Of a DNA stretch of 64,000 nucleotides, positions 39,651 through 61,850 are shown piece by piece. A program made the translations under genes and the position numbers. The notes under the pieces were generated by a model that saw nothing but the letters and a program-made list of their open reading frames with translations, was not told the origin of the DNA and made no database searches. Within the stretch, counting starts at the first letter, position 1. Each line of letters starts with the position of its first letter. This stretch comes from a virus, in the IMG/VR virus record IMGVR_UViG_3300014613_000001, positions 96,001 to 160,000 of that record. One strand, given 5' to 3'.

Positions 39651-39681
39651 TTACCTGCCGGAAGATTTAGTGATCCCGGGT
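39651..39681 (+). repeat. Degenerate copy (B0) of the 31-bp hairpin element
   Basis: TTACCTGCCGGAAGATTTAGTGATCCCGGGT; about 23/31 identical to B3, with compensatory C-G pair. Confidence 0.6.
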
Positions 39682-39703
39682 ACTATACATGAGAGGAGTA
39701 GAG

Positions 39704-40228
39704 ATGAGACTGATTGCTGGAGTTGCCCAATCGCGTGACGGAAAATTCGCAACGATCCTGGTGATGGACGGGGATCCGTTCTTCATCGGGCAAAGTGAGT
39801 CGAGGGAGAACGCGATCAACCGTGCCGATAAAATGAACGCTACGCTGGTCAAACTCGCAGACCTGGACGGGTTCAGTCCGAGTATAGACGCAAAGATGGA
39901 GAACCTTGCGCATCACACGGCCACAGTGCGACGGGCAGTAGGGCGTGGCGCGCTGCATACGTTCACCACTATGGTAGCTGCGGTAGGACGGATTGGAATG
40001 TGTGCCACGGGTGATGTGAAAGATGAGGATCATCATGGACTCTTCGATGCGTTTCTGCTGCTCACACTTGAATCCCGGATCCTGCTACACCAACTGGGGT
40101 TTGATCATCGCCGGGTGATCGAACAAGGCCTAAGAGCTCTGGATAAGGTGCTACCCCTGATGGTGGCCGAGTCGGGAGTACCTGATCCTGGTAGTGATCC
40201 TGATAGTGATCCTGATAGTTTGAACTAA
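39704..40228 (+). CDS. Hypothetical protein
   Basis: RBS GAGGAG. Confidence 0.55.
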   Translation: MRLIAGVAQSRDGKFATILVMDGDPFFIGQSESRENAINRADKMNATLVKLADLDGFSPSIDAKMENLAHHTATVRRAVGRGALHTFTTMVAAVGRIGMCATGDVKDEDHHGLFDAFLLLTLESRILLHQLGFDHRRVIEQGLRALDKVLPLMVAESGVPDPGSDPDSDPDSLN

Positions 40229-40260
40229 GATCACGAGACGGGCTCTGAATGTATACAATA

Positions 40261-40329
40261 ACATCGAAAAGTATAATAGAACGTTACTCATTTAGTATAT
40301 GGGTAACGTTCTATTATACTTTTCGATGT
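40261..40329. repeat. Perfect 27-bp inverted repeat with 15-nt spacer; each arm contains TATAAT
   Basis: ACATCGAAAAGTATAATAGAACGTTAC (40261-40287) and its exact reverse complement (40303-40329). Confidence 0.97.
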
Positions 40330-40346
40330 AATAGGAGGAGTAATCC

Positions 40347-40841
40347 GTGGAGGAGGAAGGGAAGATCAGTGATCTTGCACAGGATCAATATAAAAATGAG
40401 ATCAATTACTGGATAGGTGGGGCATTTTCGCTATCCGGAAGTTTCTTCATCGGACACGCAGGGCTCACCCCATCCAGGAGGGTCAGATACAAAACAGCCG
40501 CACACATCATCACGTACACGAACAGGAGCAGCGCTCTGCTGCTGCTCCAGTATCACGTCGGAGGGAAAATCAGGCCCTACCGCGGGAGCCTGGCCAGATC
40601 ACTATGGACGACGACGACTCAGAGGGAGCTCGAGAATCTATGTGAGATACTCGATCGTGTTCCTCTTCCAGTACATCTGGAAAACCAATTGCGGATCATG
40701 AACAAATTCTTGGCCACGAGGCTTCCAGCTGGGAGGAAAGCCGAAGATCAGAAAGAACGTCTGGATCACATATTCTGCGTTCAGGAGGAATTATGCCGTC
40801 AACTTCAACTGCTGAAGACGGAAGCACGACAGGGCATGTGA
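40347..40841 (+). CDS. Single-motif LAGLIDADG-fold protein with degenerate catalytic motif
   Basis: YWIGGAFSLSGSFFI aligns with YLAGFFDGEGSI; downstream TN..LLLLQYHVGGKI and W...LENLCEIL pattern. Confidence 0.6.
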   Translation: MEEEGKISDLAQDQYKNEINYWIGGAFSLSGSFFIGHAGLTPSRRVRYKTAAHIITYTNRSSALLLLQYHVGGKIRPYRGSLARSLWTTTTQRELENLCEILDRVPLPVHLENQLRIMNKFLATRLPAGRKAEDQKERLDHIFCVQEELCRQLQLLKTEARQGM

Positions 40842-41047
40842 GCACGGAACTCGTCCACCTTCTGGAAGCAGGGGGTGTCGAGGTAGAAGACATGGACGAT
40901 CTCGTCCATGATCTTGCGAGTCAGATTGCAACAGCCGTGAATAACGGTGGTCTGAGCAGTCAAGTGGACTTCGTGTTGGAACAGCTCGGGGTGGCGGAGG
41001 GGCGCAGCGAGCTGATGACGATCGTGAAAGCGAAGAAGGACAAATAA
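40838..41047 (+). CDS. Hypothetical protein
   Basis: GTGA overlap with upstream stop. Confidence 0.5.
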   Translation: MSTELVHLLEAGGVEVEDMDDLVHDLASQIATAVNNGGLSSQVDFVLEQLGVAEGRSELMTIVKAKKDK

Positions 41048-41730
41048 TGGATTATGAATTGACTGAGAAAGGCTTCGTCCAAGAGCTCAAGGAGCTCACC
41101 GCCCCAGTGGTGCTCTCTTGTCAGTCGATAGCACCCTACTCGGGCTGCTGGGAGGAGCCAAACCACTGGCTACTCAAAGATGGCCAGCTCTACCCACTGT
41201 ACGTCAGCGGGGTGTTGTATGCCGTTCTGGGCTATGAGGGGCTAGCGGCACACGATGTCATCATGAAGGCGACTCCACTCCAAGAGTTCATTGAGCAGGC
41301 GCTCGCACACCAGTCGAGGTACAGCGAGTGGCGGTGGGCCGGCACGGGTGAGGTTGATCTCGGAGAGAACTACCACAACATAGTGACAGTGATCTTGGAT
41401 CGGCACAATGTACCCACACCAAAATGGGTATGCGATACATGTGGTGACACCTACCAGGGTGTCGCTCATTTTCTCGGCTATAGGGGAAATGGTGGAATCG
41501 GTATCTTTCTCCGTGATTACTGCTGTGGGGATTGCCTGGGCTCTTCTGAGTATTGTAGTGTGTGTGATCATAAGACCGAAGCTGGGTGGTGTGAGCATTG
41601 TGAGGACGATGTTCGGACCTACGGGTCCGAGGATCAGGCCCCGCGGTTCGGGCTGGATGGGTCACAATTCCTGGGGCCAGGAGAAAGCCAAGGCCCGCCT
41701 CCAGTGATCGTGATCGCGGTGAGGGAGTAG
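41047..41730 (+). CDS. Cys-rich hypothetical protein
   Basis: Three CxxC-type clusters. Confidence 0.55.
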   Translation: MDYELTEKGFVQELKELTAPVVLSCQSIAPYSGCWEEPNHWLLKDGQLYPLYVSGVLYAVLGYEGLAAHDVIMKATPLQEFIEQALAHQSRYSEWRWAGTGEVDLGENYHNIVTVILDRHNVPTPKWVCDTCGDTYQGVAHFLGYRGNGGIGIFLRDYCCGDCLGSSEYCSVCDHKTEAGWCEHCEDDVRTYGSEDQAPRFGLDGSQFLGPGESQGPPPVIVIAVRE

Positions 41731-41732
41731 GG

Positions 41733-42356
41733 ATGAATGCAAAGCTGGGCAAAAGGCTGCCTTTTGATTTGACGGTGTTCGTTGAAACACGTCCGTACTT
41801 GCGAGATGAAGGGCTCGATTCGGAGAGGTTCCTCGGCCGAGATGTGCTGGATAAGATGTTCGATCTGATGGAGGAGTTTGACAATACGTCAGTAGTCCTC
41901 TCCTTTCCTGAGCGCTGGCTCAACATACTCGAGCAACAAGCCCTGATCAAACGTCTGGTGCAGTATGGGAAAAGGTTACAGCGCGTACAGATCCTGACCC
42001 ACTCCACCTACATTCTTCAGAATTGCCCCAATGAATCTGTGCGCGGGTTTGTACAGGAGTGGGTGATCTGCGGTGATGATCGTGGGAAGTTGTACGCCCC
42101 GCCGCACTGTCGTTTTCTTCACCACAACAAGTTGAATGTGCTCGGAGGGAGCGTGTCTGGAGTTGGGGCTTCTGATGCGCCGGTTATCAATGACACGAGC
42201 CGCGTGTATCGTAAGGCCGCAGAAGAGATGCTAAAGACGATATGCGCTCGCAGTGATTTCGATATAGATCAAGACGCCAAGGTATCCGAGAGCGACGATG
42301 GGGCATACGTTCAAGTGTGGGTCTGGATACCGAAAGAGGATGTGGAGGAGGAATAG
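41733..42356 (+). CDS. Hypothetical protein with ABC/AAA-ATPase-like C-terminal motifs
   Basis: FPERWLNILEQ and ILTHSTYIL resemble D-loop and H-loop; no Walker A. Confidence 0.4.
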   Translation: MNAKLGKRLPFDLTVFVETRPYLRDEGLDSERFLGRDVLDKMFDLMEEFDNTSVVLSFPERWLNILEQQALIKRLVQYGKRLQRVQILTHSTYILQNCPNESVRGFVQEWVICGDDRGKLYAPPHCRFLHHNKLNVLGGSVSGVGASDAPVINDTSRVYRKAAEEMLKTICARSDFDIDQDAKVSESDDGAYVQVWVWIPKEDVEEE

Positions 42357-42357
42357 G

Positions 42358-42828
42358 ATGGGAAGAGAGCTGAGGCAGTGTGTGTTGTGTTCTAGTGTCA
42401 GGAAGGACAGGGACGAGATCACGAGCCAGGAGGACGCGACGCTGAATCATTGCTTCGCCGCGGGTCGTCGTCCAGCGTACCAACCGTACGCGGGAAACTC
42501 GCGAAAGATCAAAGTGACATGTCGGCACTTCGCGCACCTGCGCGTGGTGTCGACGACCCCGGGCAAGAAGATTGGCGTTCGTAAGCAGAGTGATGTGGGG
42601 TATCTCCGAGAAGAGGAAATGATGTGGATGACTGATTACATTCGAGAAATTCAAAGACAGCTGGTCGAGGTCTTCAACTTCGAAGCTCGCACCGATGTTC
42701 CCGAAGGCATGGTGATCCCGATCGCGGCACCGGATGGAACCTATGACATGACCATCGAAGGACGTGTGGATCATGTGGTCATCGCAGACGGGAAGATCAA
42801 TTGTGGCAACTTCGATGAGGAGAAGTGA
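42358..42828 (+). CDS. Hypothetical protein
   Basis: RBS GGAGGA. Confidence 0.5.
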   Translation: MGRELRQCVLCSSVRKDRDEITSQEDATLNHCFAAGRRPAYQPYAGNSRKIKVTCRHFAHLRVVSTTPGKKIGVRKQSDVGYLREEEMMWMTDYIREIQRQLVEVFNFEARTDVPEGMVIPIAAPDGTYDMTIEGRVDHVVIADGKINCGNFDEEK

Positions 42829-43319
42829 TGGCTGATTACTTTACGCAGTACAGTGTGCAGGTCGAGGCCCGGAGTGTGGAGGAGTTCGCGTGGTTCACGG
42901 CGCGTTGCGAGGAGATGTTCGGAGCTGCACCGGAAGAATGGTCTGAGACCGCACCATGGGCGGCCGACCTCGCTCGGGAGATTCTCGGTCTTGACCCGGA
43001 AGACCTCTGCGGAAATCCAGAATACAAGATGGAGGAGCCCCGGGAGTTGTATAAGTTTGGGTCGGTGTGGTTCCACGAAGATACGTCTGGATCCCCGATC
43101 ATCGTGGCGTTGTTGATGGTGTACTACCTTCGAACCTTTCATCCGAAGGGGTGCTTCTCGATCATCTGGGCAGACACATGCTCGAAGCCGCGGCTCGATG
43201 GCTTCGGTGGCGGAGCACACTTCGTCACCGCTGACGGAATCCAATCAATGAGCGTGTATGACTGGGTTGCGGATCTCGAGAGAGAGCATAAGAGGAAGAG
43301 GTCAAATGAGCTTACCTAG
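42828..43319 (+). CDS. Hypothetical protein
   Basis: TGATG coupling. Confidence 0.55.
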   Translation: MADYFTQYSVQVEARSVEEFAWFTARCEEMFGAAPEEWSETAPWAADLAREILGLDPEDLCGNPEYKMEEPRELYKFGSVWFHEDTSGSPIIVALLMVYYLRTFHPKGCFSIIWADTCSKPRLDGFGGGAHFVTADGIQSMSVYDWVADLEREHKRKRSNELT

Positions 43320-45380: not shown

Positions 45381-45393
45381 AGGAGGTTGTCCA

Positions 45394-46151: not shown

Positions 46152-46234
46152 GTCTGAGATCAGTAAGCCTCTCAGCTGGCATTAGCAAATCCTGATCAGA
46201 GCTTATGCTCGTCAGGTACATTGTCAATAAAAAA
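46152..46234 (-). repeat. 83-bp element A1 (31-bp hairpin arm plus leftward sigma70 promoter)
   Basis: 82/83 identical to 60323-60405; TTGACA-16-TAAGCT on minus strand. Confidence 0.92.
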
Positions 46235-46250
46235 GGCAAGGAGCAGAAGG

Positions 46251-46688
46251 ATGAGTGAAAATTGGCGGGAGAAGATTGCAGAACTCGAGCTCAAGGTCAA
46301 AGAACTCGAGCTCCAGCTTTCTACCGAGAAGGACAACGCCGCGGTGGACGCACTCGACGCCATCGTCCAGCTCTGCGGCCAAGGTGGGTGGGAGTACCCC
46401 GGTCAGGTTGTGAGAGACGTCGCAGCGTTGGTGGAGGAGCGCGACACGGCGCGCAAACGTTCGCACCTGAGGCGCGGGCAGCTCGGCCAATACGTGATGG
46501 CAGGTGAGCTGTACCGCGCACTCTACACACACCTGTACGTAGTGTACAAAGAGTGCGGAACGATTGTGGAGAAAGGCTCCTCCGCCAACACGGGCGAATA
46601 CGCAGTGGCTATCCAGGAGATCGTGGCGCTGGTCTTGCGTGCTCTCGAGCAGGAGTATGACCGCGACCGGTCAAATCGAGATCAGTAA
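46251..46688 (+). CDS. Hypothetical coiled-coil protein
   Basis: RBS AAGGAG; flanked by A1 and B1 elements. Confidence 0.55.
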   Translation: MSENWREKIAELELKVKELELQLSTEKDNAAVDALDAIVQLCGQGGWEYPGQVVRDVAALVEERDTARKRSHLRRGQLGQYVMAGELYRALYTHLYVVYKECGTIVEKGSSANTGEYAVAIQEIVALVLRALEQEYDRDRSNRDQ

Positions 46689-46747
46689 GTCTCCTTGTCT
46701 TTAGGACGAGGAGTAAGGATCGTCTCCGAGATAATTGATCTGTTCTC

Positions 46748-46778
46748 ATACCAGCTGGGAGGTTTAGTGATCTCAGAC
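46748..46778 (+). repeat. 31-bp hairpin element B1
   Basis: ATACCAGCTGGGAGGTTTAGTGATCTCAGAC. Confidence 0.9.
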
Positions 46779-47635: not shown

Positions 47636-48107
47636 GAATTGGCGCGCGAAGCGCTGCCACGATTGCGGGTGCGGGCACGATGAGATTCACGAGCTTGGGT
47701 GTGATATGGAGCGTTGTCCATACTGCCTGGGACAACTGATCTCCTGTGATTGCGCCTACGAGCTGTTGGGATTGGTGGATCACGACGAGTATCCAGACAC
47801 CGGAGGGCTTCCACCCAAGATATATCGCGGTGGCCTGTCCTCGGAGCAGGGAGAAAAGTGGCTTCAATTGATCAATGTAAGGGGTCGCATCCCCTATCAG
47901 AGCCCGGGGCAGCCGGGGATCGCGGACAACGTCTGGTCGGAGTTCGTCCATCCAGACGGCCACTGCTCCCTCTGTGGGAACTCAGGTGTCATTGACACAC
48001 GAGGGCACGTAGAGACCGCAGCTGGTTGGAAGGTGGGGGCGAGGTGCTTCTGCATCTGCCCAAACGGGAGGGCGTGGAAGACCAGTACCGGTAACCCATC
48101 TCAATAG
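47628..48107 (+). CDS. Cys-rich two-domain hypothetical protein
   Basis: CHDC...CPYC...CDC and CSLC...CFCICP clusters. Confidence 0.55.
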   Translation: MGENWRAKRCHDCGCGHDEIHELGCDMERCPYCLGQLISCDCAYELLGLVDHDEYPDTGGLPPKIYRGGLSSEQGEKWLQLINVRGRIPYQSPGQPGIADNVWSEFVHPDGHCSLCGNSGVIDTRGHVETAAGWKVGARCFCICPNGRAWKTSTGNPSQ

Positions 48108-48122
48108 GGAAGCTGGATTAGA

Positions 48123-48509
48123 GTGATTGAATACTGGGCAGGCGAAGAGCCGGCCCAGCTCCACCGAGTCGGAATCCTCTGGTGGTCAGAGGCCGACGGG
48201 CGGCTCATCGCCCGAGGGGGCTTCGACATGGCCGAAGGCTCGGCCGTTACGCTGACCGTGGTCTCCGACTCCCTCTCCGGGGAGAGGCGTTTCGACGGAT
48301 CCGTCCACCCCGACCAGGTGGACGAGCTCCTTGACGCCCCGGAGGGCTACCCCCTCCGCATCGAAGAAAACTGCGGCCAGGCAGGCGAGACGTGGGCAGT
48401 CGCTGGGCCAGTCCCCCCGGAGTTTTCCTCGATTCCCCCCGGGTGGAGAATCGAGGAAAAGTGGGTGCACGGGCACCCGAGTTCATACTACGTAGTGAAG
48501 GCGATCTAG
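48123..48509 (+). CDS. Hypothetical protein
   Basis: 128-aa ORF. Confidence 0.45.
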   Translation: MIEYWAGEEPAQLHRVGILWWSEADGRLIARGGFDMAEGSAVTLTVVSDSLSGERRFDGSVHPDQVDELLDAPEGYPLRIEENCGQAGETWAVAGPVPPEFSSIPPGWRIEEKWVHGHPSSYYVVKAI

Positions 48510-48515
48510 GTGCGT

Positions 48516-48540
48516 TGAGAGGGCCGAGAGGCCCAAGGAG
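48516..48540 (+). repeat. C-family leader motif (TGAGAG-GGCC-tetraloop-GGCCC-SD), copy C3
   Basis: TGAGAGGGCCGAGAGGCCCAAGGAG. Confidence 0.7.
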
Positions 48541-48546
48541 ATTGAG

Positions 48547-48910
48547 ATGAATTTTGCGAACCTGACCCCCCACGCCATCGTCGTCCGCACGTCGGACGGC
48601 GACATCACGCTCGAGCCGACGACCCCGCCGGCTCGAGTCCAGAACACTGCAGGAAATTTCCTGCGGGAGATCGACGGCGTCCCGATCTTCTCGGCTGACG
48701 TGCCCGGCAAGATTGAGGGGATCCCCCCCCTCACAAGAGGGCACGATGTATGTCGTGTCAGTCGTCGTGGCGGGGGCGCTGTCGCCCGAGCGACGCGTCG
48801 TGGGGGACGTAGTGGTCCCCGCCACCGGCCCGGCGGACGGGGCGATCCGATATTCAGATGGCCCGCGCCGGGGCCAGATCGAGGCCGTCACGCGGCTGAA
48901 GTTGGCGTGA
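48547..48910 (+). pseudogene. Small phage protein interrupted by an out-of-frame C8 tract
   Basis: MNFANLTPH...IEGIPP continues as SQEGTMYVVS...VTRLKLA if one C of 48723-48730 is removed. Confidence 0.65.
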
Positions 48911-49015
48911 CGACCGGCCCTGAGCACGGCCGAAAAAAACTGCTCATCTCGTCGCCGGTCAGATTGCTCGCGGCGGCGGGACCAAGGAAGGGCTAAGAGC
49001 CCAGAAGGAAGAGAG

Positions 49016-50296
49016 ATGACGAGGTACGTGGACCTAGACGCTGCGGCGTCCACATCCCCGCTGCCAGCAGTGGAGGATGCTGTTCGAGCCTTCCTCGCCG
49101 AGTACGGTAGTGTCCACCGGGGGAGTGGGCGCCACAGTAAATTGTCCACGGACGCCTATGACCACGCTCGTCGCGTGATCAGGCGTTTCGTGGGCGCCGG
49201 GGAGGAGGACTACGTCCTCTTCACCGGCAACACAACGGGGGCGATGAACGTCATCGCCCACCACCTCTCCTTCCTTCGGGGAGGGGTGGCGGTCAGCAGC
49301 CTGGAGCACAGCTCCTCGTTGCTGCCCTTCGTGAAAGCGGAGGGCGAGCGGGCGGTGCAAGGCCGCCAATTCGCACTGGAAGAGCTGGACTCTGTTGCCG
49401 AGCAGATCCAGCTCGCGGGTCGAAAGAATGTACACAAGTACATCATCGACCCGTTCCGCGGGATCGACCTGGAGAGCCTGGAAACTCTCCTGTCGACCCA
49501 TAAGACGAAGGCGGTCGTCCTGACCGCGTCGTCGAACCTCACGGGGTACTGCCCCCCAATCCGTGAGGTTGCGCGCCTGGCTCACAGCCACGGTGCGCTG
49601 TTGGTCCTGGACGGATGCCAGTTCGTCCAGCACCACGTCCTCAACATGGAGGCTGAGGGCGTGGACTTCGTGGCCGCATCGGGCCACAAGTTCTATGCCC
49701 CCTACGGGGGTGGGTTTCTGGTAGGGCCGAAGTGGTTCTTCGACCGCTTCTTGCCCTACCAAATCGGTGGAGGCAACCTCCCGTACATCACGGGAGATGG
49801 CGAGTTTCTTCGGTTCAAGATCGAGCTTGCCCATGACCCCGGTACCCCGAACGCAGTCGGGGCCGTGGCCATGGCCGCCGCCCTCGAGGAGATGGAGAAG
49901 ATCGGACTGGACCGGATCTTCTCGCACGAGAAGGCCCTCGCCATGCGGGCGCATGAGGGTCTCAGTTCCATCCCAGGAGTGGAGCTGTACGTAGAACGGG
50001 AGCGGTTGGGCACCGTCGTCCCGTTCAATCTCCGAGGGCAAGACCCCAAAGAGGTTGCCGAAATCCTCTCGACGCAGTTTGACATCGGCGTTCGCGCCGG
50101 ATCGTTCTGTGTCTATGAGGGCGTGCGGCAACTTCTCGGGATCACCCCCGAGGAGGACGCCCGAATCGCCGAGAGGGTTCGCCTCGGTGATACCAGCAGC
50201 ATCCCGGGGCTCATCCGAGCCTCGGTGTGCTGGCACACGCGGACCGAGGACGTGGACCGTCTCATCGAGGCGGTTCGCGTGGTGGCAGGAGGATGA
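49016..50296 (+). CDS. PLP-dependent class V aminotransferase, SufS/cysteine desulfurase-like
   Basis: DAAAS, SVHRG, NTTGA, EHSS, SGHK (PLP lysine), RAGSFC (catalytic Cys loop, cf. RxGHHC). Confidence 0.88.
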   Translation: MTRYVDLDAAASTSPLPAVEDAVRAFLAEYGSVHRGSGRHSKLSTDAYDHARRVIRRFVGAGEEDYVLFTGNTTGAMNVIAHHLSFLRGGVAVSSLEHSSSLLPFVKAEGERAVQGRQFALEELDSVAEQIQLAGRKNVHKYIIDPFRGIDLESLETLLSTHKTKAVVLTASSNLTGYCPPIREVARLAHSHGALLVLDGCQFVQHHVLNMEAEGVDFVAASGHKFYAPYGGGFLVGPKWFFDRFLPYQIGGGNLPYITGDGEFLRFKIELAHDPGTPNAVGAVAMAAALEEMEKIGLDRIFSHEKALAMRAHEGLSSIPGVELYVERERLGTVVPFNLRGQDPKEVAEILSTQFDIGVRAGSFCVYEGVRQLLGITPEEDARIAERVRLGDTSSIPGLIRASVCWHTRTEDVDRLIEAVRVVAGG

Positions 50297-51435
50297 GTGC
50301 CGTCCTCAAGGCGCTGCGGGCCATGCCCGTGAGCGTCAACTGCTACCACGGTGACCCCACCCTCCAGTGGGGCAACACCGTTCAAAAATTGGAGGATCTC
50401 GCTGCCGAAGGCCACACGGGCCCGGTCAGCGTAATCACCAAGGGTGCCCTCGGCCCGGCGAGAGGTAGGAAGCTCGCTGAGCTGAAGGGGAGACTCCCGG
50501 GCCTGCTGGTGATGGTTTCCATCAGCGGACTAGGGAGGGAGTTCGAGAAGGCGGGACACGACCACCGGTACCGAGCTCTCGCCACCCTGCGGGAGGTGGG
50601 GGTCCCCGCCTTCGCGGCTGTCAGGCCGCTGACCCCTCCGTATAACACCACTCCAGAGGTGTTGTACGAGATCTTCTCTCGACTGCAAGCTGTCGGCTGC
50701 GAGACAGCTTGTGTGTCGGGGTTCCGAGGGGACTCATCCCTGATCGAGGCTATGGAGCCGTCGGCAGGGATCGAGTGGGTCTTGCGGGTGAAGCAGATGA
50801 CGGGGTTCGACCTCGTCAAGCGGATCGCCGATCAATGCGGCGTCCGCCTGTTCACCCGTGTGTCCTGTTGTGCGTCCTACCTCACTGGGAGGACTGGGAC
50901 GTACAACCCCTATTGGGGGTCGCCCCAGTTGGTTCGTTGCGAGGAGATCGGCTGTCCGCTGGTCGACTTCTGTGGACCAGTGGCCCCTGACCCAGAGGTC
51001 GTGTCCTGGCTTGAAAGAGTTGGATACGACCTTCGGGTGGAGCAGCGCTGCCAGGAGCGCTGCCGGTTCAGCGCGGACAACCGCCTGAACTGTAAGAGCT
51101 GCTGTACGACCTGCTTCGTGCAGCCGCAGCCCCGGGTGATTGTGCGCAACGCACGAACTCTCGGGGATTTGGCCTTCGTCAGGTTCGTTCTCGGCGGGAC
51201 CCTTGCGGTCAAGCCGGGCATGATTGACGGAGGGGATCGAGACGTTGGGCGAGTCTCGGTTCTGAGTGAGCTCCTTGGGCAGGAGCTCCACTGCATCAAT
51301 TCCTGGTGGGTGTGGGCCACCCGCAAGGAGTCCTGCTTCGGGTGCAGGTACTGTATCAGTACCCTCTACCCGGGGCAGGGCACGGTCGGCTGCCCCCCGG
51401 CTGACCTGGCCGACATGGTGGATAGTCATGTTTGA
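50293..51435 (+). CDS. Radical-SAM-like (SPL-type barrel) protein with C-terminal Cys motifs
   Basis: GDP, VITKG, VSISG, RPLTPPYN barrel motifs; no N-terminal CxxxCxxC; CKSCCTTC and CFGCRYC near C-terminus. Confidence 0.6.
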   Translation: MSAVLKALRAMPVSVNCYHGDPTLQWGNTVQKLEDLAAEGHTGPVSVITKGALGPARGRKLAELKGRLPGLLVMVSISGLGREFEKAGHDHRYRALATLREVGVPAFAAVRPLTPPYNTTPEVLYEIFSRLQAVGCETACVSGFRGDSSLIEAMEPSAGIEWVLRVKQMTGFDLVKRIADQCGVRLFTRVSCCASYLTGRTGTYNPYWGSPQLVRCEEIGCPLVDFCGPVAPDPEVVSWLERVGYDLRVEQRCQERCRFSADNRLNCKSCCTTCFVQPQPRVIVRNARTLGDLAFVRFVLGGTLAVKPGMIDGGDRDVGRVSVLSELLGQELHCINSWWVWATRKESCFGCRYCISTLYPGQGTVGCPPADLADMVDSHV

Positions 51436-52303
51436 ACCAGGAAAGCCGGCATGCCCTATCGCATGCCAGTATTGCTTCATCACGGAGCATGATACCCGGC
51501 GCGCGGTGTGGAACCGCGCTTCCATGGCGGGTGTGAACAAGGCGTGTACCTACGTCAATGTCCCGCCCTGGATTCGCGAGGACGCCGATGCCCAGCGACG
51601 CTTTTCGGTGTTTCCCTGGGACCTGCTCAAAGGTGATGTGGTCGGTTTCACCGCGATCACCGATCCTTGCTGGCCCCGGCTGGAGCCACAACTCCGGGAA
51701 TTCTTGGAGCGGGCCGGGACAGCGGCCAAAATGGTGACGCTCGTCACCAAATGGCCGCTGTCTCGCCGACAGGTTCGGTTCCTGTCCGATGTTCCGAATC
51801 TGTTCCTGGTGATCTCGATCACCGGGAACCCACCCCCAATAGAGGGGGTTCCCGTCTCCAAACACCTCGAAACCCTTGAGAGGTGCAAAGATGCAGGGAT
51901 CCCCTCACTCCCGATCGTGCACCCCTACATCAGTGGGGTGAGCGATCTGGGTTTTCTCCCCAACCTGATTGAGTTGGGGTACGACCAGGTAGGGGTAAAA
52001 GGCATCCGGTACTGCGACGCGCACATGGCGTCGTGGATGCCTTCCCTCTCCAGGGGGGCCTACCGTGGTCGTGAGGACGAGGAGGTGCTGCCAGAAGACG
52101 GCTGGCGCCAGCTCGTCGAGGACGCAGGGTTCACCCTGCGTTCTCCCAAGGATTGGTACCTCGAGCAGGTGTCAACCCTTGGTCCTCACCTAGAACGAGG
52201 TGAAGCGGAGAACCTGGTAGATCAGGTCTTCCGTCTCGCCAACGTGACATCATCGTCGGACGACGCTTCTGTCTGGGAAGCGGCCATTCGACGAAGGATG
52301 TAG
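51428..52303 (+). CDS. Radical SAM protein (SPL-like)
   Basis: CPIACQYC; ITDP; LVTK; ISITG; HPYISG. Confidence 0.8.
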   Translation: MFEPGKPACPIACQYCFITEHDTRRAVWNRASMAGVNKACTYVNVPPWIREDADAQRRFSVFPWDLLKGDVVGFTAITDPCWPRLEPQLREFLERAGTAAKMVTLVTKWPLSRRQVRFLSDVPNLFLVISITGNPPPIEGVPVSKHLETLERCKDAGIPSLPIVHPYISGVSDLGFLPNLIELGYDQVGVKGIRYCDAHMASWMPSLSRGAYRGREDEEVLPEDGWRQLVEDAGFTLRSPKDWYLEQVSTLGPHLERGEAENLVDQVFRLANVTSSSDDASVWEAAIRRRM

Positions 52304-52344
52304 CTCTGGTACTGAGGTGAGCCGGGGAGACGGGGGGCAGACCC

Positions 52345-52400
52345 CCGCCCCCGCTCCTCGGGGGCTCGGGGCAGTGAGAGGGCCTGAAGGCCCGGAGGAG
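52345..52400 (+). repeat. C-family leader motif, copy C1
   Basis: First 36 nt are 35/36 identical to 53601-53636. Confidence 0.85.
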
Positions 52401-52405
52401 ATGTC

Positions 52406-52651
52406 ATGAAAATAACGTTGAGAAATTCACTCCACAACACGTCCGTCCGCGTCGTCGCTCCCGAGAGCCTCGTGCTCTCTAAGAGCCAGGTCGCCAGGGC
52501 GCGCCGCGCCCTCTGCGGGATGCCCGGGTGCAAGTGCGCGAGCACGGCTCTCGGAACCTACGGCGAGAGTCCCGAGGGATCAGACGGCACCTTCTATGGT
52601 GTCGAGGACCTCTATGACGGTCGCGTTGAGCTGGTCGAGGTGACACGATGA
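52406..52651 (+). CDS. Hypothetical protein
   Basis: RBS GGAGGAG. Confidence 0.55.
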   Translation: MKITLRNSLHNTSVRVVAPESLVLSKSQVARARRALCGMPGCKCASTALGTYGESPEGSDGTFYGVEDLYDGRVELVEVTR

Positions 52652-52848
52652 CCACGACGGACCTGCAAGAGGCGGCCCTTGCCGCCCTGGCCCGAGCCCA
52701 GGAAGCAGAAGCCGCGTTGGCCCGGCTGGTGGCGGAGCACCAGCAGCTCGAGCGCCTGGTGCGCGAGCACTGGGATGCGTCTCGGCGGGCTGGTATCAGG
52801 CCCCACGACGAGCAGCTCCACGCTGGCTATCTCCGGCTGGAGCAGTAG
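52648..52848 (+). CDS. Small coiled-coil protein
   Basis: ATGA overlap with upstream stop. Confidence 0.5.
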   Translation: MTTTDLQEAALAALARAQEAEAALARLVAEHQQLERLVREHWDASRRAGIRPHDEQLHAGYLRLEQ

Positions 52849-52899
52849 GCCGAAACCGGGGCAACCCGGTCCGGGCGTAGGGCGCCCGCTGACGAGGCC
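52848..52899 (+). ncRNA. Type II hammerhead ribozyme
   Basis: GGCC-GAA-ACCGGG(GCAA)CCCGGT-C-CGGGCG(TAGGG)CGCCCG-CTGACGA-GGCC: all core nucleotides, three perfect stems, GUC cleavage triplet ending at 52871. Confidence 0.92.
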
Positions 52900-52921
52900 G
52901 TCAGAGCAAGGAGAAGAGAAA

Positions 52922-53389
52922 ATGAACGATCAGAATGAAGCCATCGAAACCACCGGCCGTATTCCTCGGATCGTCGGCCCCGACGGGGCAGAGGCAGTCG
53001 CCACCGAGGTCGGGATCTGCGCCGACTGCGGTTGCGCCGGCCTGGTGTCCGACTGGCCGGGACGCGGCGCGCTATGCGCCGCAGCGGATGATGGCCGGCT
53101 GATCTGTGACGACTGCGCCGAGCTCGAGGCCGAGCCCGAGCCCATCCCGGAGCCCGTCCCGTGCACGAACGGGATAGGCTACGACTGCCACTCGGGGGGC
53201 TATCTCCCCGAGTGGTTGATCGCGGCGGTGGCCTCAGCGATAGCCGAGGCCCACGACGACGGAGTGTCGTCGTGCGGCGGGGGCGCCCCCCTCGCCAACT
53301 GGGACCTCGACTGTCCCCTCTGGTCGTCGGAGGGGGAGCGTTCGGCCCGCCATCGGGCCGTCGAGGCCCTGAAGAAGGGGGTGAAGTGA
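52922..53389 (+). CDS. Cys-containing hypothetical protein
   Basis: RBS AAGGAG just downstream of the ribozyme. Confidence 0.55.
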   Translation: MNDQNEAIETTGRIPRIVGPDGAEAVATEVGICADCGCAGLVSDWPGRGALCAAADDGRLICDDCAELEAEPEPIPEPVPCTNGIGYDCHSGGYLPEWLIAAVASAIAEAHDDGVSSCGGGAPLANWDLDCPLWSSEGERSARHRAVEALKKGVK

Positions 53390-53580
53390 TGTATGTAGTT
53401 CTGTGTGATCTCGATGAAGGAGCTCATATCTCCTCCTGCCACGAGACGCGGGAGGAGGGGGAGGCGGCACTAGCCGCCGTCCCGCTCCGAGGAATAACAC
53501 ACGATTGGGCCTCGCTCGTCGAGGTCCATCCGGGGGTGCCCCCGCGGATGGTCGCGGGAAGATGCCCCGACGGAGAGTAG
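53389..53580 (+). CDS. Hypothetical protein
   Basis: TGATG coupling. Confidence 0.45.
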   Translation: MYVVLCDLDEGAHISSCHETREEGEAALAAVPLRGITHDWASLVEVHPGVPPRMVAGRCPDGE

Positions 53581-53600
53581 ACCTCTCCCGTCCCTGGTCA

Positions 53601-53656
53601 CCGCCCCCGCTTCTCGGGGGCTCGGGGCAGTGAGAGGCCGAGAGGCCCAAGAGGAG
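53601..53656 (+). repeat. C-family leader motif, copy C2
   Basis: Direct repeat of C1. Confidence 0.85.
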
Positions 53657-53758
53657 CTGATATGGCAAGCAAAAGTGGTCTCCTCATCCCGATGGAGACT
53701 CGATCATCTTGCATGATCCACAACATGGTTCGCCAGATACCGAAGTGGGAGAGTCACA

Positions 53759-54265
53759 ATGAGCAGCAAGTACGAGAGCATTGGTCGGGGAACGACGAGA
53801 GCGATTCTGCGTCGTCACGCTAGCAGCGAGGAACAAAGTTTGCAAAGTCCGCAGGATGAAACGAGTGATCAGCTTCGTGAGGAGATGAACTACATATACG
53901 CTGCACTGGATGAAATCATATCGGCGAATGCCCGGGCCCGGCACGAGGGTCGCGACTCAGCTGTGACGCAGCATATGACCGTGCTGGCTCGAGGTGGTTT
54001 TGCCGCGCTCGAGTACGCCCGGACGTATTTCATGCTCCTCAACGATACTCGGATCGATTCCGAGAGGCAAAAGTCCGAACAGGTCAAGAAGGACCGTCTG
54101 CTTCATCAAGCGATGGGCCTTCTGGTCACTGTTTGTGGAAAGGAGCGCGTGCCAGCTGAGTGGAGAAGGGATCTGGCGGCATTCATTGACGAACACGCCG
54201 TCGTCAAGTCAGAGGATTTCATTGACGAACACGCCGTCGTCAAGTCAGAGGATGCCGATGCCTGA
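53759..54265 (+). CDS. Hypothetical protein
   Basis: 168-aa ORF. Confidence 0.5.
   Translation: MSSKYESIGRGTTRAILRRHASSEEQSLQSPQDETSDQLREEMNYIYAALDEIISANARARHEGRDSAVTQHMTVLARGGFAALEYARTYFMLLNDTRIDSERQKSEQVKKDRLLHQAMGLLVTVCGKERVPAEWRRDLAAFIDEHAVVKSEDFIDEHAVVKSEDADA
54182..54253 (+). repeat. Perfect 36-bp tandem duplication (FIDEHAVVKSED x2)
   Basis: TTCATTGACGAACACGCCGTCGTCAAGTCAGAGGAT twice. Confidence 0.97.
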
Positions 54266-56648: not shown

Positions 56649-56651
56649 GTG

Positions 56652-56948: not shown

Positions 56949-56994
56949 TGGTGCGCCGCAGGCACTGAAGAGAGCAGCTGAGGAGCGAGAGAAG

Positions 56995-57518: not shown

Positions 57519-57528
57519 GAGAAGACAG

Positions 57529-58224
57529 ATGGGATGTGACATTCACTGCTACGTTGAGGTACGCGGCAGCGACGGAAAATGGCAGTTCACGGACGACGGG
57601 TACTTTGCACGGCGACCAGATTATGGAGCAAATGATATAGGCACCCTCAAGGCGTGATGGAATGACAGGCCGAAGTATCTCTATGAAGGGAGAAACTATA
57701 ATCTCTTCTCCATCTTGGCAAATGTACGGAACGGGTATGGTTTTGCCGGCTTCAGGACCGGAGATGGGTTTGTGCCAATCTTCAATCCCCGCGGCGTGCC
57801 CGAGGACGCAAGCCCTGAGTTTGTGGAGATCTCGGACGGGTGGGGTGGCGATGGGCACAGTCACAGCTACCTTACCGTTCGGGAGTTGCTCGACTATGAT
57901 TGGGATCAACAAACCCGGCTATGTGGCTGGGTTGGCGAGGAAGAATACGTCAAGTGGCGTGATAAAGGATCACCGAGCAGCTGGGTCGGTGGCATTTCTG
58001 GCCAATGTGTCAAGCACGTAACAAACGAGGAGATGGAACAGCATATCTGCGAGAAGCAGGCTCACGTACCTCAGGCTCACAGTGCCGACGCTGTGTTTAC
58101 AGAGGTCTCCTGGGGTACCTCGTATCGGGAGTGTGCTTCTGTGTTCTTGGAAGAGACCCTGCCCGCCCTCCAAGAACTCGGTCCGTCCAAAGATGTACGG
58201 ATCGTTTTCTTCTTCGACAATTGA
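57529..58224 (+). pseudogene. Phage hypothetical gene (MGCDIH... type) interrupted by one in-frame TGA at 57655-57657
   Basis: ATG 57529 with RBS AGGAG; same frame continues after the TGA into ORF 57715-58224. Confidence 0.7.
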
Positions 58225-58233
58225 TCTGTTCTC

Positions 58234-58264
58234 ATACCAGCTGGGAGGTTTAGTGATCCTAGAC
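58234..58264 (+). repeat. 31-bp hairpin element B2
   Basis: ATACCAGCTGGGAGGTTTAGTGATCCTAGAC; shares the upstream AATTGATCTGTTCTC with B1. Confidence 0.9.
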
Positions 58265-58313
58265 CCCACGCCACGACACCTACCCTCGTTCATCACCAAC
58301 AAAGGAGAAAATC

Positions 58314-60323
58314 ATGTTCAAAGAATTCAAGATTGCCATAGAGCGACAGTTCGAGTTGATGAAGGGTCATCAGCTCTTCCGCACAGAAGTGGAGAAAGAA
58401 CTCCTGTGGCTCACCTACCTCGAGAGCTTCCCTCCGGGAACCAATCCACAGTACAAAGAACGCACCGAGTACGACTGCCAGGCGTGCAAGAGCTTCATCC
58501 GCGCCGTGGGCAGCATGGTTGCCGTCATCGACGGTGAGCTGGTCTCCCTGTGGGACGTGGAGGTGAACCGCCCCTACGACAAGGTGGCCGCGGAGTTGTC
58601 GGAGCTTGCGAAGAGCGCTCCGATCAAGAACATCCTACTTCACGATTCCGCTTTGGTCGGTGTCGACAAGAACTTTCAGGATCTCGATGGGGAGATACTG
58701 ACCTGGGAGCACTTCTACCTCAAGCTCCCACCGTCCTGTGTCAATAATGATCGTGGAGCCGTTTACGCGGACAAGCGATCGCAGAAGGATGTCTTCGCTC
58801 GGTCGCTTCAAGAGATCACTATCGACGCCCTCGAGACCGTGGTCGATCTCATCGGGCAGAACTCGCTCTATCGGGGGGAGGAGCATCTGCACTCGGTGCA
58901 ATCGTTCCAGAAGGAGAAGAAGGCCTACGACAAGCTCGAGACCCCTCGGGCACAAGAGCTCTTCTGCTGGCGGCAGGATCTGGGCCCGGCAGTTACGAGG
59001 ATCCGTAGCTCTGCCATCGGCACGTTGCTGGTTGACCTCTCGGAGGGCGAGGATTTGGACGCCGCGGTACGGATGTTCGAGTCCAAGGTGGCTCCCTCCA
59101 ACTACAAGCGTCCCAAGTCTATCGTGACCAAAGCCATGATCGAGCGCGCTCGTAAGACCGTGGAGGAGCTTGGCTATGGTACGGCCCTCGGTCGTCGGTT
59201 CGCGGTCATTGACGACATCACGGTTGACAACGTGCTGTTCGCGAATCGCAACGCGCGGATCAGTATGAGCACCGACGTCTTTGACGATATGATCTCCGAG
59301 ACGCCTGGGGATACGAAGCACCTCGACAGGGTCGAAAAGGTCGACATCAACGTCTTCCTCGAGAACATCCTCCCGAAGGCGACCTCGGTCGAGCTGCTGC
59401 TCGAGGGTCGTCACAGCGGCAACTTGGTGAACCTGGTCGCCCCGAGCGATCCAGAGTCCAAGCTGCTCTTCAAGTGGACCAACAACTTTTCATGGGCCTA
59501 CGCGGGGGATCTGGCTGATTCGATCAAGGAAAGAGTCAAAGCGCGGGGCGGCAGTGTGACTGGCGATTTCCGCGCTTCGCTGGCGTGGTTCAACTCTGAC
59601 GACCTGGATCTTCACCTGATTGAGCCTAGTGGATTCCGCATCTACTTCGGAAACAAAGGCTCCCCCGCAACGGGCGGTACACTAGATGTAGACATGAACG
59701 TCTACGCGTCGGGTCTAGGGTTCTCCCGAAACGCTGTCGAGAATATCACCTACGAATCCCGGAGCAGGATGCGCAGCGGAGTGTACAAGCTCATTGTCAA
59801 CAACTACACGCATCGAGAACACATCGACGTGGGGTTCGAGGTCGAGCTCGAGTTCGACGGTCGGATCACGACTTTCGCCTGTAACCGAGAGGTCCGTTAT
59901 AAGGAGGACGTGGTGGTGGCGGTCTTCTCCTATTCACCGAGCGAGGGCATCAAGATTCTGCAGTCTCTGCCGATGCAGAGCGTCTCGAGGACGCTGTGGA
60001 ATCTACCGACCGAGAAGTTCCACCCCGTCACCATCGCTCTGCTGTCGCCCAACCACTGGGATAACCGTCCCACCGGCAACAAGCACTACTTCTTCATGTT
60101 GCAGGATTGCAAACGGGAAGGAAGCTCGAGGGGCTTCTTCAATGAGCAGCTCTCGGATGATCTTCGAGAACATAGAAAGGTGTTCGAGATTCTCGGGGCC
60201 AAGATGAGGACAGAGGAGGAGGGCGAGCAGCTCAGCGGGCTCGGCTTCTCTTCAACACAGCGGAGCAGCGTGTACGCCAAGGTGACTGGTTCGTTCACCC
60301 GAATCGTCAATGTCACGTTCTAG
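58314..60323 (+). CDS. Large conserved phage hypothetical protein (C-terminal DLDLH / YfaP-DUF2135-like domain)
   Basis: 669 aa; LAWFNSDDLDLHL...LDVDMN...VENI motif. Confidence 0.6.
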   Translation: MFKEFKIAIERQFELMKGHQLFRTEVEKELLWLTYLESFPPGTNPQYKERTEYDCQACKSFIRAVGSMVAVIDGELVSLWDVEVNRPYDKVAAELSELAKSAPIKNILLHDSALVGVDKNFQDLDGEILTWEHFYLKLPPSCVNNDRGAVYADKRSQKDVFARSLQEITIDALETVVDLIGQNSLYRGEEHLHSVQSFQKEKKAYDKLETPRAQELFCWRQDLGPAVTRIRSSAIGTLLVDLSEGEDLDAAVRMFESKVAPSNYKRPKSIVTKAMIERARKTVEELGYGTALGRRFAVIDDITVDNVLFANRNARISMSTDVFDDMISETPGDTKHLDRVEKVDINVFLENILPKATSVELLLEGRHSGNLVNLVAPSDPESKLLFKWTNNFSWAYAGDLADSIKERVKARGGSVTGDFRASLAWFNSDDLDLHLIEPSGFRIYFGNKGSPATGGTLDVDMNVYASGLGFSRNAVENITYESRSRMRSGVYKLIVNNYTHREHIDVGFEVELEFDGRITTFACNREVRYKEDVVVAVFSYSPSEGIKILQSLPMQSVSRTLWNLPTEKFHPVTIALLSPNHWDNRPTGNKHYFFMLQDCKREGSSRGFFNEQLSDDLREHRKVFEILGAKMRTEEEGEQLSGLGFSSTQRSSVYAKVTGSFTRIVNVTF

Positions 60324-60405
60324 TCTGAGATCAATAAGCCTCTCAGCTGGCATTAGCAAATCCTGATCAGAGCTTATGCTCGTCAGGTACATTGTCAATA
60401 AAAAA
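60323..60405 (-). repeat. 83-bp element A2
   Basis: 82/83 identical to A1; begins in the TAG stop of the upstream gene. Confidence 0.92.
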
Positions 60406-60410
60406 CATGT

Positions 60411-60441
60411 ATGCCTGCTGGGAGGCTTAGTGATCCCAGAC
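60411..60441 (+). repeat. 31-bp hairpin element B3
   Basis: ATGCCTGCTGGGAGGCTTAGTGATCCCAGAC. Confidence 0.9.
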
Positions 60442-60487
60442 TATAGGAGAAAACGCGTGTGTCTGAGACCAGAAGGAGAGAGAGAAC

Positions 60488-60709
60488 ATGAGTGAACGTG
60501 CGCCAGATGGCATGAGCAGGGAAACATGGGAAGCCGTCGTCTCAGACGGGTTTGGTGTGGCGATCAAGAATGATGCCGGGCAGTGGGTGAGGGTCGATCC
60601 GAAGTCGGTCTTCATCTACGATGCTCGTCAGGAGGAGCCCCACTTCTATGGCGATGACGGACCACCCGGCCGGGTAATCAGGGACAGGAGCTGGGGAGGA
60701 ACCGAGTAG
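60488..60709 (+). CDS. Hypothetical protein
   Basis: Preceded by GGAGAGAGAGAACATG. Confidence 0.5.
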   Translation: MSERAPDGMSRETWEAVVSDGFGVAIKNDAGQWVRVDPKSVFIYDARQEEPHFYGDDGPPGRVIRDRSWGGTE

Positions 60710-60726
60710 ATTCCCCAGCAGAGAAA

Positions 60727-60748
60727 GAGAGAGAGAGAGAGAGAGAGA
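60727..60748 (+). repeat. (GA)11 microsatellite in ribosome-binding region
   Basis: Ends 2 nt before ATG 60751. Confidence 0.95.
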
Positions 60749-60750
60749 AC

Positions 60751-61272
60751 ATGAGTGAAGAGATCAGCCCGATTGGACCGATGAGAGTGCAACTAGAGAA
60801 GGACGATTATACGTTCCCCCTGAAAAACGTTGTCCCGTGGGAGGACTGGAAGAAGATCACGGAGACCATTCCCGAGGATATGTGCTGGCGTAAATCAGCA
60901 CTGCGTCAGAATGGGGTGTTCGACAGCTTGAAGCTCGGTAACGCTGTTGCGTGTTCGAGTCACACATCCAAGAGCTGCAAGCTGCCCGTGGTTCGAGGGG
61001 TCGTGGCGCCCGGGGTCGTCGTGATCATCCGGGGTAATTTCTATGACTGGAAAGTTAGTGTCATCAGCGATCATCCTCTCCCGGGGATCGACGACACCTA
61101 CCTCTTCGAACCAGAGACGCATCACAGGTCCGTCTACTTCGAGGGCTTCGATAATGCCTGGTGCTTCGGCAGCTACAAGAACAATCAGCAGCAGTTCTCG
61201 GTAGAGCTCGAGTATGACCCACTGCGGCTGTACACTTTCGTTCGAGAACTGCGCCGCGTCAGTACCCGCTGA
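60751..61272 (+). CDS. Hypothetical protein
   Basis: 173-aa ORF. Confidence 0.6.
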   Translation: MSEEISPIGPMRVQLEKDDYTFPLKNVVPWEDWKKITETIPEDMCWRKSALRQNGVFDSLKLGNAVACSSHTSKSCKLPVVRGVVAPGVVVIIRGNFYDWKVSVISDHPLPGIDDTYLFEPETHHRSVYFEGFDNAWCFGSYKNNQQQFSVELEYDPLRLYTFVRELRRVSTR

Positions 61273-61281
61273 CCAACGCGT

Positions 61282-61312
61282 ATGCCAGCTGGGAGGCTTA
61301 GTGATCCCAGAC
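61282..61312 (+). repeat. 31-bp hairpin element B4
   Basis: ATGCCAGCTGGGAGGCTTAGTGATCCCAGAC, 9 nt after stop codon. Confidence 0.9.
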
Positions 61313-61370
61313 GGGACCCCGCAGTCGGCCTCCGCCCTACCTAAATAGTGATCGGGAGGTACCGTGAACA

Positions 61371-61757
61371 ATGGAAGATAAATACCGGGACTGGATCGAC
61401 GCGAATGTAGACGACGATGGGTTCGGGCTCTGCCAAGAGTATGCAGAGTTGATGGCAGGGGAATTCCCTGAGCTCAGGGCCGTCTATGGATACTACAATA
61501 TCGATGACCGGTCGTTTCCGCACTGCTGGTGTGTGGACACAGACGGAAATGTCATAGATCCGACCGTAGAGCAGTTTGGAACCGGCGGCCAGTATGTACA
61601 GAAGAGGAACATCACCGACATACCAGATCAACTGCGTAAGATCGCTCACGAGGCGGCCAAGCTCATCGTGAGCGAAGATAAAGCAGGAACTGTGTACGAG
61701 GCATGGCTCGTGCTCTGCATCATCCGGAATTTCGAGAAATTGATCGCGCGAGAGTAG
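61371..61757 (+). CDS. Hypothetical protein
   Basis: GLC...M...FPEL...GYY...HCWC...VIDPT pattern. Confidence 0.55.
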   Translation: MEDKYRDWIDANVDDDGFGLCQEYAELMAGEFPELRAVYGYYNIDDRSFPHCWCVDTDGNVIDPTVEQFGTGGQYVQKRNITDIPDQLRKIAHEAAKLIVSEDKAGTVYEAWLVLCIIRNFEKLIARE

Positions 61758-61767
61758 ACCGTGTGAT

Positions 61768-61850
61768 CTCTGAGATCGATAAGCCCCTCAGATGGCATTA
61801 GCAAATCTTGATCAGAGCTTACACGCGTCAGGTGCGTTGTCAACAAAAAG
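61768..61850 (-). repeat. 83-bp element A3 (diverged)
   Basis: About 71/83 identical to A2; TTGACA and TAAGCT conserved. Confidence 0.88.

Follow-up and report, generated by a model that had tools for sequence, protein, structure and literature searches.

Across a 64,000-nucleotide window of phage DNA (bases 96001-160000 of the complete 177,773-bp virus record IMGVR_UViG_3300014613_000001), a 31-nt hairpin element recurs on both strands. Our analysis indicates that this element is almost certainly the repeat of a type V-M CRISPR system, that is, the scaffold of its CRISPR RNA (crRNA), and that the cleavage-dead effector of this system, Cas12m, is encoded by the phage itself. The copies in the window are solitary repeat units of the type V-M family. 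Such repeats would have spread from degenerate mini-arrays around the cas12m gene to the spacers between genes in a ~60-kb block of small genes of accessory or early type. This arrangement suggests, though it does not prove, that the phage applies a CRISPR protein to its own transcripts.

Identity, structure and dispersal of the element

The cas12m gene lies outside the window, 92 kb upstream of it, at genome positions 3458-5305, and encodes a protein of 615 amino acids. The product matched PDB entry 23vw_A over residues 11-574 (E 6e-40) and the Cas12m2 entries 8hio/8hhl (E 1.5e-14), and the phage genome holds no other TnpB/Cas12-like gene. Its RuvC triad, N-E-D, is non-canonical, as in other Cas12m proteins, which bind DNA without cutting it (PMC10442227, PMC11013384). 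The gene is directly flanked by five copies of the element upstream and five downstream. A preliminary description of the window had recognised no known family in the hairpin; among its candidates were solitary repeat-like guide or decoy RNAs, and it advised a look elsewhere in the genome for a Cas12/TnpB gene. Both the advice and the candidate were borne out by this cognate Cas12m gene and the element mini-arrays on either side of it, while the likeness to CasPhi repeats that had been drawn gave way to membership of the type V-M repeats.

Pre-crRNA is processed by Cas12m itself, through a cut that falls inside the repeat and immediately upstream of the scaffold (PMC10442227, PMC11013384). This scaffold consists of a stem and a pseudoknot, the latter described for Cas12m2 (PMC10442227). 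The handles used for eight characterised Cas12m proteins (PMC11013384, Table S5) share the layout of the phage element. Copies of the element fall into two classes, A-type copies oriented with the local genes and B-type copies antisense to them, and the B-type consensus is identical to the published handles at 30 of 38 positions for Tf, 29 of 38 for Un and 25 of 38 for Ms. The layout held in common with the TfCas12m and UnCas12m handles reads UUGC.AAUGCC, stem, loop GGYUU..., stem, AC and then the guide.

Two covariance models were compared. R1, built from the phage's own element family, matched in register all array repeats beside the closest Cas12m homologue (55% identity, in a Mu-like phage contig with a regular array; arrays L017/L018), at modest scores of 15-16 bits. 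R2 was derived from L022, a 180-kb phage contig whose array accompanies a Cas12m of 29% identity; it matched the window copies at equally modest scores of 14.8-21.4 bits, as well as regular arrays in many metagenomic Cas12m loci. This mutual detection of the element and other Cas12m arrays identifies the element as a type V-M repeat. The pseudoknot pairing also holds in the array of another Cas12m phage.

In an alignment of 37 copies, the 6-bp stem was paired in 98.1% of cells, with double changes at two of its six pairs. A second helix, a 3-bp pseudoknot, joins columns 9-11 (5′ (A/G)CC) to columns 20-22 (loop GG(U/C)); it was paired in 96.2% of cells and showed double changes at all three pairs. 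Taken together, stem and pseudoknot were paired in 97.5% of cells and five of the nine pairs had double changes; none of 500 shuffles attained the covariation score of the alignment. The pseudoknot pair 9-22 was AU in 18 copies, GC in 14 and GU in three, and was never unpaired; in two copies of one lineage all three pseudoknot pairs had switched jointly, from ACC/GGT to GUU/AAC. Single-sided changes were mostly wobbles that keep the pair (14 of 22, with roughly one quarter to one third expected). Genome-wide, G.T/T.G wobble cells on the element's own strand numbered 14 against four A.C/C.A cells, and wobble-bearing copies folded worse on the opposite strand. The terminal GAC was present in 30 of 37 copies. 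The folding energy of the hairpin was not unusual (z about 0 against shuffles), so that the case for structure comes from covariation and not from free energy. For the window itself, the alignment agreed with the preliminary description on the consensus, on the G-C to A-T swap in the three - strand copies, on the T-A to C-G swap at 39651 and on the three wobble copies (46748, 58234 and 61768), all G.T on the element's own strand. It had asked for covariation in a larger alignment and for copies elsewhere; the 37 aligned copies show covariation and extend beyond the window.

About 38 copies were found across the 177,773-bp genome, 23 of them at 1.8-17 kb, three at 67 kb and 12 at 135.6-177 kb. 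The record carries a 123-bp terminal repeat, which suggests a circular map, and once the genome ends are joined nearly all copies fall in the single ~60-kb small-gene block. Predicted open reading frames (ORFs) exclude 35 of 37 copies, the remaining two lying within weak ORF calls that span arrays. The gene-sense orientation was seen in 31 of 37 copies, minus-strand gene blocks included. These are the A-type copies (31/31 of those that are not B-type), which occupy leaders and intergenic spacers; the six B-type copies all run the opposite way, and three of them are the - strand copies of the window. The 38th copy, at genome 167996-168048, has a loop one base shorter and a 3′ stem arm triplicated as a 9-nt tandem repeat.

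Around 20 copies are solitary, including all those in the window. The mini-arrays have a period of 39-60 nt (91 nt once) and spacers down to 8 nt, some of them near-duplicates. Tandem Repeats Finder detected no regular type V-M array in the phage genome, whereas most of the Cas12m loci examined hold regular arrays with a period of 72-74 nt. Since the window copies are all solitary and the mini-array periods irregular, the members of this family do not form a CRISPR array; moreover, in-array spacers as short as 8 nt are too short to guide, which argues that the handles themselves matter. No Cas1 or adaptation module was found in the phage genome, so the arrays probably grow by duplication.

Compared with characterised type V-M systems (MmCas12m2, GoCas12m, MsCas12m, TfCas12m; Wu 2022, PMC10442227, PMC11013384), the phage effector is homologous over its full length and likewise non-canonical in RuvC, the repeat has the same architecture with up to 30/38 identical bases, and there is no trans-activating crRNA (tracrRNA). 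Those systems consist of regular arrays of 36-nt repeats and ~36-nt spacers, as do the loci beside the closest homologue and most metagenome loci. The present phage instead has only degenerate mini-arrays and about 20 solitary copies, which are distributed across ~60 kb and for the most part lie within mRNAs, and it has no Cas1.

The contig from which R2 was built has an irregular array too (L022:11768-13113), with 28 degenerate repeats at a period of 46-50 nt whose compensatory changes keep the stems (96.8% of cells paired); these repeats stay within the array inside the 10 kb read on each side. An AcrVA2-like protein is encoded 6 kb upstream of that contig's cas12m (L022:2903-4186).

No related phage was found in IMG/VR through the repeat core, the Cas12m protein or the RNA polymerase, one metagenome scan for the repeat returned nothing, and no host or plasmid array with the same repeat was present among prokaryotic species representatives. 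Two 18-mer matches in IMG/VR (L015, L016) lacked the 5′ stem arm and were set aside as chance matches. A 2024 review mentions type V-M systems carried by phages (PMC11656645), and a September 2026 preprint describes a myxophage Cas12m that has an array next to it, with no mention of dispersed repeats. In the literature searched, we found no account of a phage genome with Cas12m repeats scattered along it. A phage with an effector, no regular array of the effector's repeat and ~38 structurally maintained handles at gene boundaries fits neither the picture of a plasmid or prophage silencer nor that of a decoy.

Copies in the window and the B-type upstream module

A pattern search, a repeat finder and an unfiltered covariance model run over window positions 38000-64000 concurred on eight full copies and one fragment. 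With R1 the eight copies scored 34.7-54.6 bits (E 4e-7 to 4e-12), and a 22-nt core with at most three mismatches recovered six of them, against a chance expectation of 0.00 from 100 shuffles. The preliminary description had placed the full copies at 39651, 46748, 58234, 60411 and 61282 on the + strand and at 46152, 60323 and 61768 on the - strand, where all were found again; its partial copy at 46678 was recovered as a fragment at 46679-46694 (E=1). Five copies had been said to start shortly after a stop codon, and the ORF list gave distances of 24, 9, 0, 9 and 10 nt for 46152, 58234, 60323, 61282 and 61768. Rfam returned no match at gathering score in the 64-kb window, the presence of a Cas12m repeat model in Rfam not having been checked. 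The features are as follows.

39651..39681, + strand: degenerate A-type solitary Cas12m repeat (R1 34.7 bits, E 4e-7), with one stem pair and one pseudoknot pair broken and a terminal GGT replacing GAC; 22 nt separate its end from the ATG at 39704, which puts the Shine-Dalgarno site in the guide position.
46152..46182, - strand: B-type Cas12m repeat with stem CTGAGA/TCTCAG and loop GGCTTACTGA (R1 50.2 bits; R2 21.4 bits, E 0.015), antisense to the flanking genes; the 24 nt beyond the repeat on the - strand are intergenic.
46183..46234, - strand: B-type upstream module with -35 TTGACA at 46227-46222, -10 TAAGCT at 46205-46200, a 16-nt spacer and an upstream T-tract; it includes the 5′ part of the full repeat (TTGCTA).
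46679..46694, - strand: B-type fragment, loop and one stem arm (model positions 17-32; R1 9.5 bits, E=1), which overlaps the ORF 46221-46688 stop codon.
46748..46778, + strand: A-type solitary repeat with one G.U pair (R1 51.2 bits); the next start is ~80 nt downstream (GTG 46859).
58234..58264, + strand: A-type solitary repeat with one G.U pair (R1 50.1 bits), 9 nt past the stop of ORF 57715-58224 and 49 nt ahead of ATG 58314.
60323..60353, - strand: B-type repeat (R1 51.7 bits; R2 21.4 bits) directly adjoining the ORF 58314-60323 stop codon; the guide position runs antisense to the final codons of this gene.
60354..60405, - strand: putative B-type promoter module, from the alignment of modules (-35 at 60398-60393, -10 at 60376-60371), back to back with the A-type copy at 60411.
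60411..60441, + strand: A-type solitary repeat with perfect stem and pseudoknot (R1 51.3 bits) and zero mismatches to the consensus core, ending 46 nt ahead of ATG 60488.
61282..61312, + strand: A-type solitary repeat, the top-scoring copy of the genome (R1 54.6 bits; R2 18.5 bits), 9 nt past the stop of ORF 60751-61272 and 58 nt ahead of ATG 61371.
61768..61798, - strand: B-type repeat with one G.U pair, ending GAG (R1 39.2 bits), 10 nt past the stop of ORF 61371-61757.
61799..61850, - strand: putative B-type promoter module (-35 at 61843-61838, -10 at 61821-61816), 84% identical to the other modules, with every substitution outside the two promoter hexamers.

The repeat finder assigned the - strand copies of the window to an 83-nt module family. 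A conserved upstream extension of ~50 nt is carried by five of the six B-type copies, and alignment of these five revealed the hexamers TTGACA and TAAGCT, 16 nt apart, with a T-tract ahead; both hexamers are invariant while the intervening bases vary. Judged from these motifs, the B-type module holds a putative sigma-70-like promoter. Transcription from the predicted promoter would begin at about the 5′ end of the full-length repeat. The B-type copies would be separate small RNA genes, transcribed antisense to the neighbouring gene, and their crRNA would require no 5′ processing. A comparable situation is said to have been described by Zhang in 2013 for Neisseria type II-C systems, whose promoters reportedly sit inside each array repeat. 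A B-type crRNA would likewise be a primary transcript with its 5′ end set by the promoter and not by processing, although the predicted B-type promoter, unlike that of Neisseria, is a separate 50-nt module ahead of a solitary repeat.

Possible roles of the dispersed handles

It is quite possible, if a little short of probable, that Cas12m binds and cuts the phage's own early and accessory transcripts at the handles. This cis role is favoured for the A-type copies because they are necessarily part of phage mRNAs. They would be transcribed within polycistronic mRNAs, and Cas12m would bind each of them, cut the transcript at the gene boundary and stay on the new 5′ end, the next 17-20 nt being held as a "guide". 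In eight genes the start codon lies 13-31 nt past a repeat; cas12m itself, at 24 nt, and the window gene at 39704, at 22 nt, are among them. With such short gaps, the ribosome-binding site would be hidden in the guide position, repressing translation and autoregulating cas12m; gaps of 46-80 nt, as after 46748, 58234, 60411 and 61282, would permit only mRNA punctuation or stabilisation. The preliminary description had listed protein-binding or processing hairpins in the mRNA among its candidates. That proposal fits the A-type copies, for which it is the functional reading that we tentatively prefer.

Regulation of this kind has relatives. In tracr-L, in CreR/CreA mini-arrays and in the solitary repeats found before cas12a (Shmakov 2023, PMC10120712), repeats have been exapted for regulation, and by analogy the phage repeat 24 nt before the cas12m start suggests that cas12m is autoregulated through it. 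Those elements act on a promoter via a partly complementary spacer and stay in the cas locus, whereas no complementary target was found here and the copies reach up to ~40 kb from cas12m across the joined ends (genome 135651 to 3458).

Several observations weigh against a role in cis. The distances from repeat to start codon are heterogeneous (22, 80, 49, 46 and 58 nt within the window; 13 to 274 nt over the whole genome), so hiding of the ribosome-binding site is applicable to a subset only. The cis model gives the antisense, promoter-driven B-type units no clear role, and their promoter was not called by a consensus promoter scan, its -10 hexamer matching the consensus at 3/6 positions. The compensatory changes trace to perhaps 4-5 events, possibly within arrays before dispersal, and selection on each solitary copy is therefore not proven. 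The copies at 39651 and at genome 10358 look decayed, and the gene calls that define leaders and gaps came from a crude home-made codon-score script. We know of no report of a Cas12m acting on mRNAs, and hence of no precedent.

A wider form of the cis reading is conceivable but rather doubtful: some large phages may have built a regulon of their own genes on a cleavage-dead Cas12m and its repeat, acting mainly on RNA in cis and not on foreign DNA. The handle would stand in the leaders of dozens of early and accessory genes, cas12m among them, a single protein would cut and mark the mRNAs and would silence those with the ribosome-binding site in the guide position, and promoter-driven antisense handles would provide a second tier. 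The TldR proteins are nuclease-dead, TnpB-derived, RNA-guided transcription factors, some of them encoded by prophages (PMC10705468). As with TldR, a cleavage-dead RNA-guided DNA binder of the TnpB/Cas12 lineage on a mobile element would be used for regulation and not for defence; TldR, however, has one adjacent guide RNA and a defined host promoter as target, while the phage has many handles and no identified target. If the handles do act in cis, they would represent natural mRNA processing and translational control by a CRISPR protein, and would also explain early-gene timing in such phages. Synthetic biology already builds such mRNA processing with Csy4 and Cas12a.

The main rival to this cis reading is that of trans-acting guides, in which the repeat and the next 17-20 nt form a working crRNA with which Cas12m silences a target elsewhere, for instance in a competing phage, in a plasmid or in a host gene; we regard it as unlikely. 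DNA-binding silencing is the sole demonstrated function of Cas12m (PMC10442227, PMC11013384). With a heteroduplex of ~17 bp (PMC10442227), guides of 15-24 nt could work, conservation ends abruptly at GAC like a repeat-spacer junction, and the full repeat has the putative B-type promoter at its 5′ end, which is where a dedicated crRNA gene would have it. In one variant, the phage leader would serve as a guide against relatives lacking the insert, its own locus being spared because GAC is not a protospacer-adjacent motif (PAM); characterised Cas12m PAMs are T- or C-rich and the repeats end in GAC (PMC11013384). On the other hand, several guides coincide with the ribosome-binding site and start codon of genes that belong to the phage itself, in-array spacers measure just 8-11 nt in some cases, and the genome yielded no adaptation module. 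No guide had a target elsewhere in the phage: matches with up to four mismatches over 18 nt and with prefixes of 10-13 nt occurred at or slightly above chance, the slight excess stemming from one paralogous pair. In IMG/VR, three of four window guides, queried as 19-mers, returned nothing and the fourth had a match at chance level, in a search limited to exact matches and with the host unidentified. Given these two limits, the absence of targets is weak evidence.

The single match concerns the 19 nt after the 58234 repeat, which are found exactly in a shikimate dehydrogenase gene (aroE) on IMG/VR contig L029:11836-11854, with GAT as the upstream triplet; about one such match is expected by chance for four scans of this kind. 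Regulation by self-targeting was also considered and rejected, as none of the guides had matches at other genomic sites in excess of chance. Should the handles act in trans, guides would be made from the phage's own leaders without adaptation machinery. On either view, this phage provides a compact Cas12m system that is multiplexed by nature and in which the tolerated scaffold variants have been mapped by covariation.

The repeats might also be by-products of recombination and modular shuffling, persisting as portable homology for cassette exchange with little or no Cas12m-dependent role, which we hold to be improbable. Tracts of homology do extend beyond the repeats: 18 nt upstream are common to 46730-46778 and 58216-58264, 25 nt upstream to genome 6739 and 10358, ~50 nt upstream to five of the six B-type modules and 12 nt downstream to two of them. 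Single genes are bracketed by direct or inverted pairs of copies, and decayed copies and one fragment exist. The promoter-stem-loop (PeSL) cassettes of T4-type phages, said to have been described by Arbiol in 2010, reportedly combine host-type early promoters with terminator-like stem-loops. Like PeSLs, the phage repeats are short, conserved regulatory sequences that bracket small accessory genes in a plastic region and are likely substrates for modular shuffling; unlike them, the present element is the RNA handle of a Cas protein. Homology alone would not require the strict co-orientation with genes seen in 31/31 non-B copies, nor the conservation of the B-type promoter hexamers, nor the excess of wobbles (14/22) among single-sided changes. 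The wobble bias and the strict orientation argue against pure neutrality. Whichever role is primary, the repeats probably do spread by recombination, with shuffling of cassettes as a side effect.

That the repeat RNAs are decoys which soak up the Cas12m of a host, plasmid or rival phage is very improbable. RNA anti-CRISPRs (Racrs) have been described as solitary repeat units with their own promoter, and viral solitary repeats and mini-arrays are likewise single phage repeats, some with a promoter (Faure 2019; Camara-Wilpert 2023, PMC10651486); type V-M systems are moreover enriched on plasmids and present in prophages (PMC11656645). Racrs, however, mimic host repeats in phages lacking the cognate cas gene, whereas this phage has its own intact cognate cas12m, flanked by repeats, and dozens of copies, most of them in gene leaders and without a promoter of their own. 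Among 185,579 prokaryotic species representatives, the exact repeat pattern occurred 0 times and a loose pattern gave one chance match that the covariance model did not confirm, although mimicry of a host repeat is weakly tested by this search, the host being unidentified.

Elements acting at the DNA level, either attC/REP-like sites for single-stranded DNA recombination, another candidate of the preliminary description, or N4-like hairpin promoters for a phage RNA polymerase, are scarcely credible, even though the copies are intergenic, occur in both orientations and bear strand-specific wobble pairs, and the phage encodes a fused beta-beta′ RNA polymerase. The complete genome contains no tyrosine recombinase (PF00589) and no Y1 HUH transposase (PF01797), for both of which control genomes gave matches, which leaves the attC/REP candidate without its enzymes. 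N4 promoter hairpins have 3-nt loops, unlike the 10-nt loop of the element, and five promoters arrayed in tandem at a spacing of 50 nt would make an odd arrangement. The hairpin promoter idea was dropped because the match to the Cas12m handle, including the pseudoknot and the GAC end, accounts for every conserved position.

Other features of the genome

A regular, orphan type I-E-like CRISPR array lies among virion genes at genome 87381-87714, 8.3 kb before the window. It comprises six copies of a 29-nt repeat, the last degenerate, and five 32-nt spacers. None of these spacers matched the phage itself, the one spacer searched in IMG/VR gave nothing, and Cas6e was not found in the phage genome. 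The phage probably borrows the type I-E system of its host, and the array could help to identify that host.

Within the window, three copies of a 12-nt unit (40183-40219) precede a 37-nt inverted repeat (40258-40332), whose arms are 92% complementary and separated by 1 nt. This AT-rich intergenic stretch (40183-40332) might serve as an origin, as an operator or as a bidirectional terminator. A high-GC island spans 48000-54000 (0.61-0.65, against ~0.56 elsewhere) and contains no Cas12m repeats; it encodes a class-V aminotransferase at 49016-50296 (Pfam E 1.6e-69), and a 64-nt repeat occurs in it between genes, at 52345-52408 and again at 53601-53664. The island may be a host-derived block of metabolic genes.

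Two adjacent small genes have their leader and first codons in common (60471-60496 and 60720-60759), and the second of these leaders has an (AG)14 microsatellite, whose length could vary. Finally, window positions 1-1992 contain the 3′ end of a gene (genome 91762-97992) for a 2076-amino-acid single-chain RNA polymerase that matches both the beta and beta′ PHROG families.

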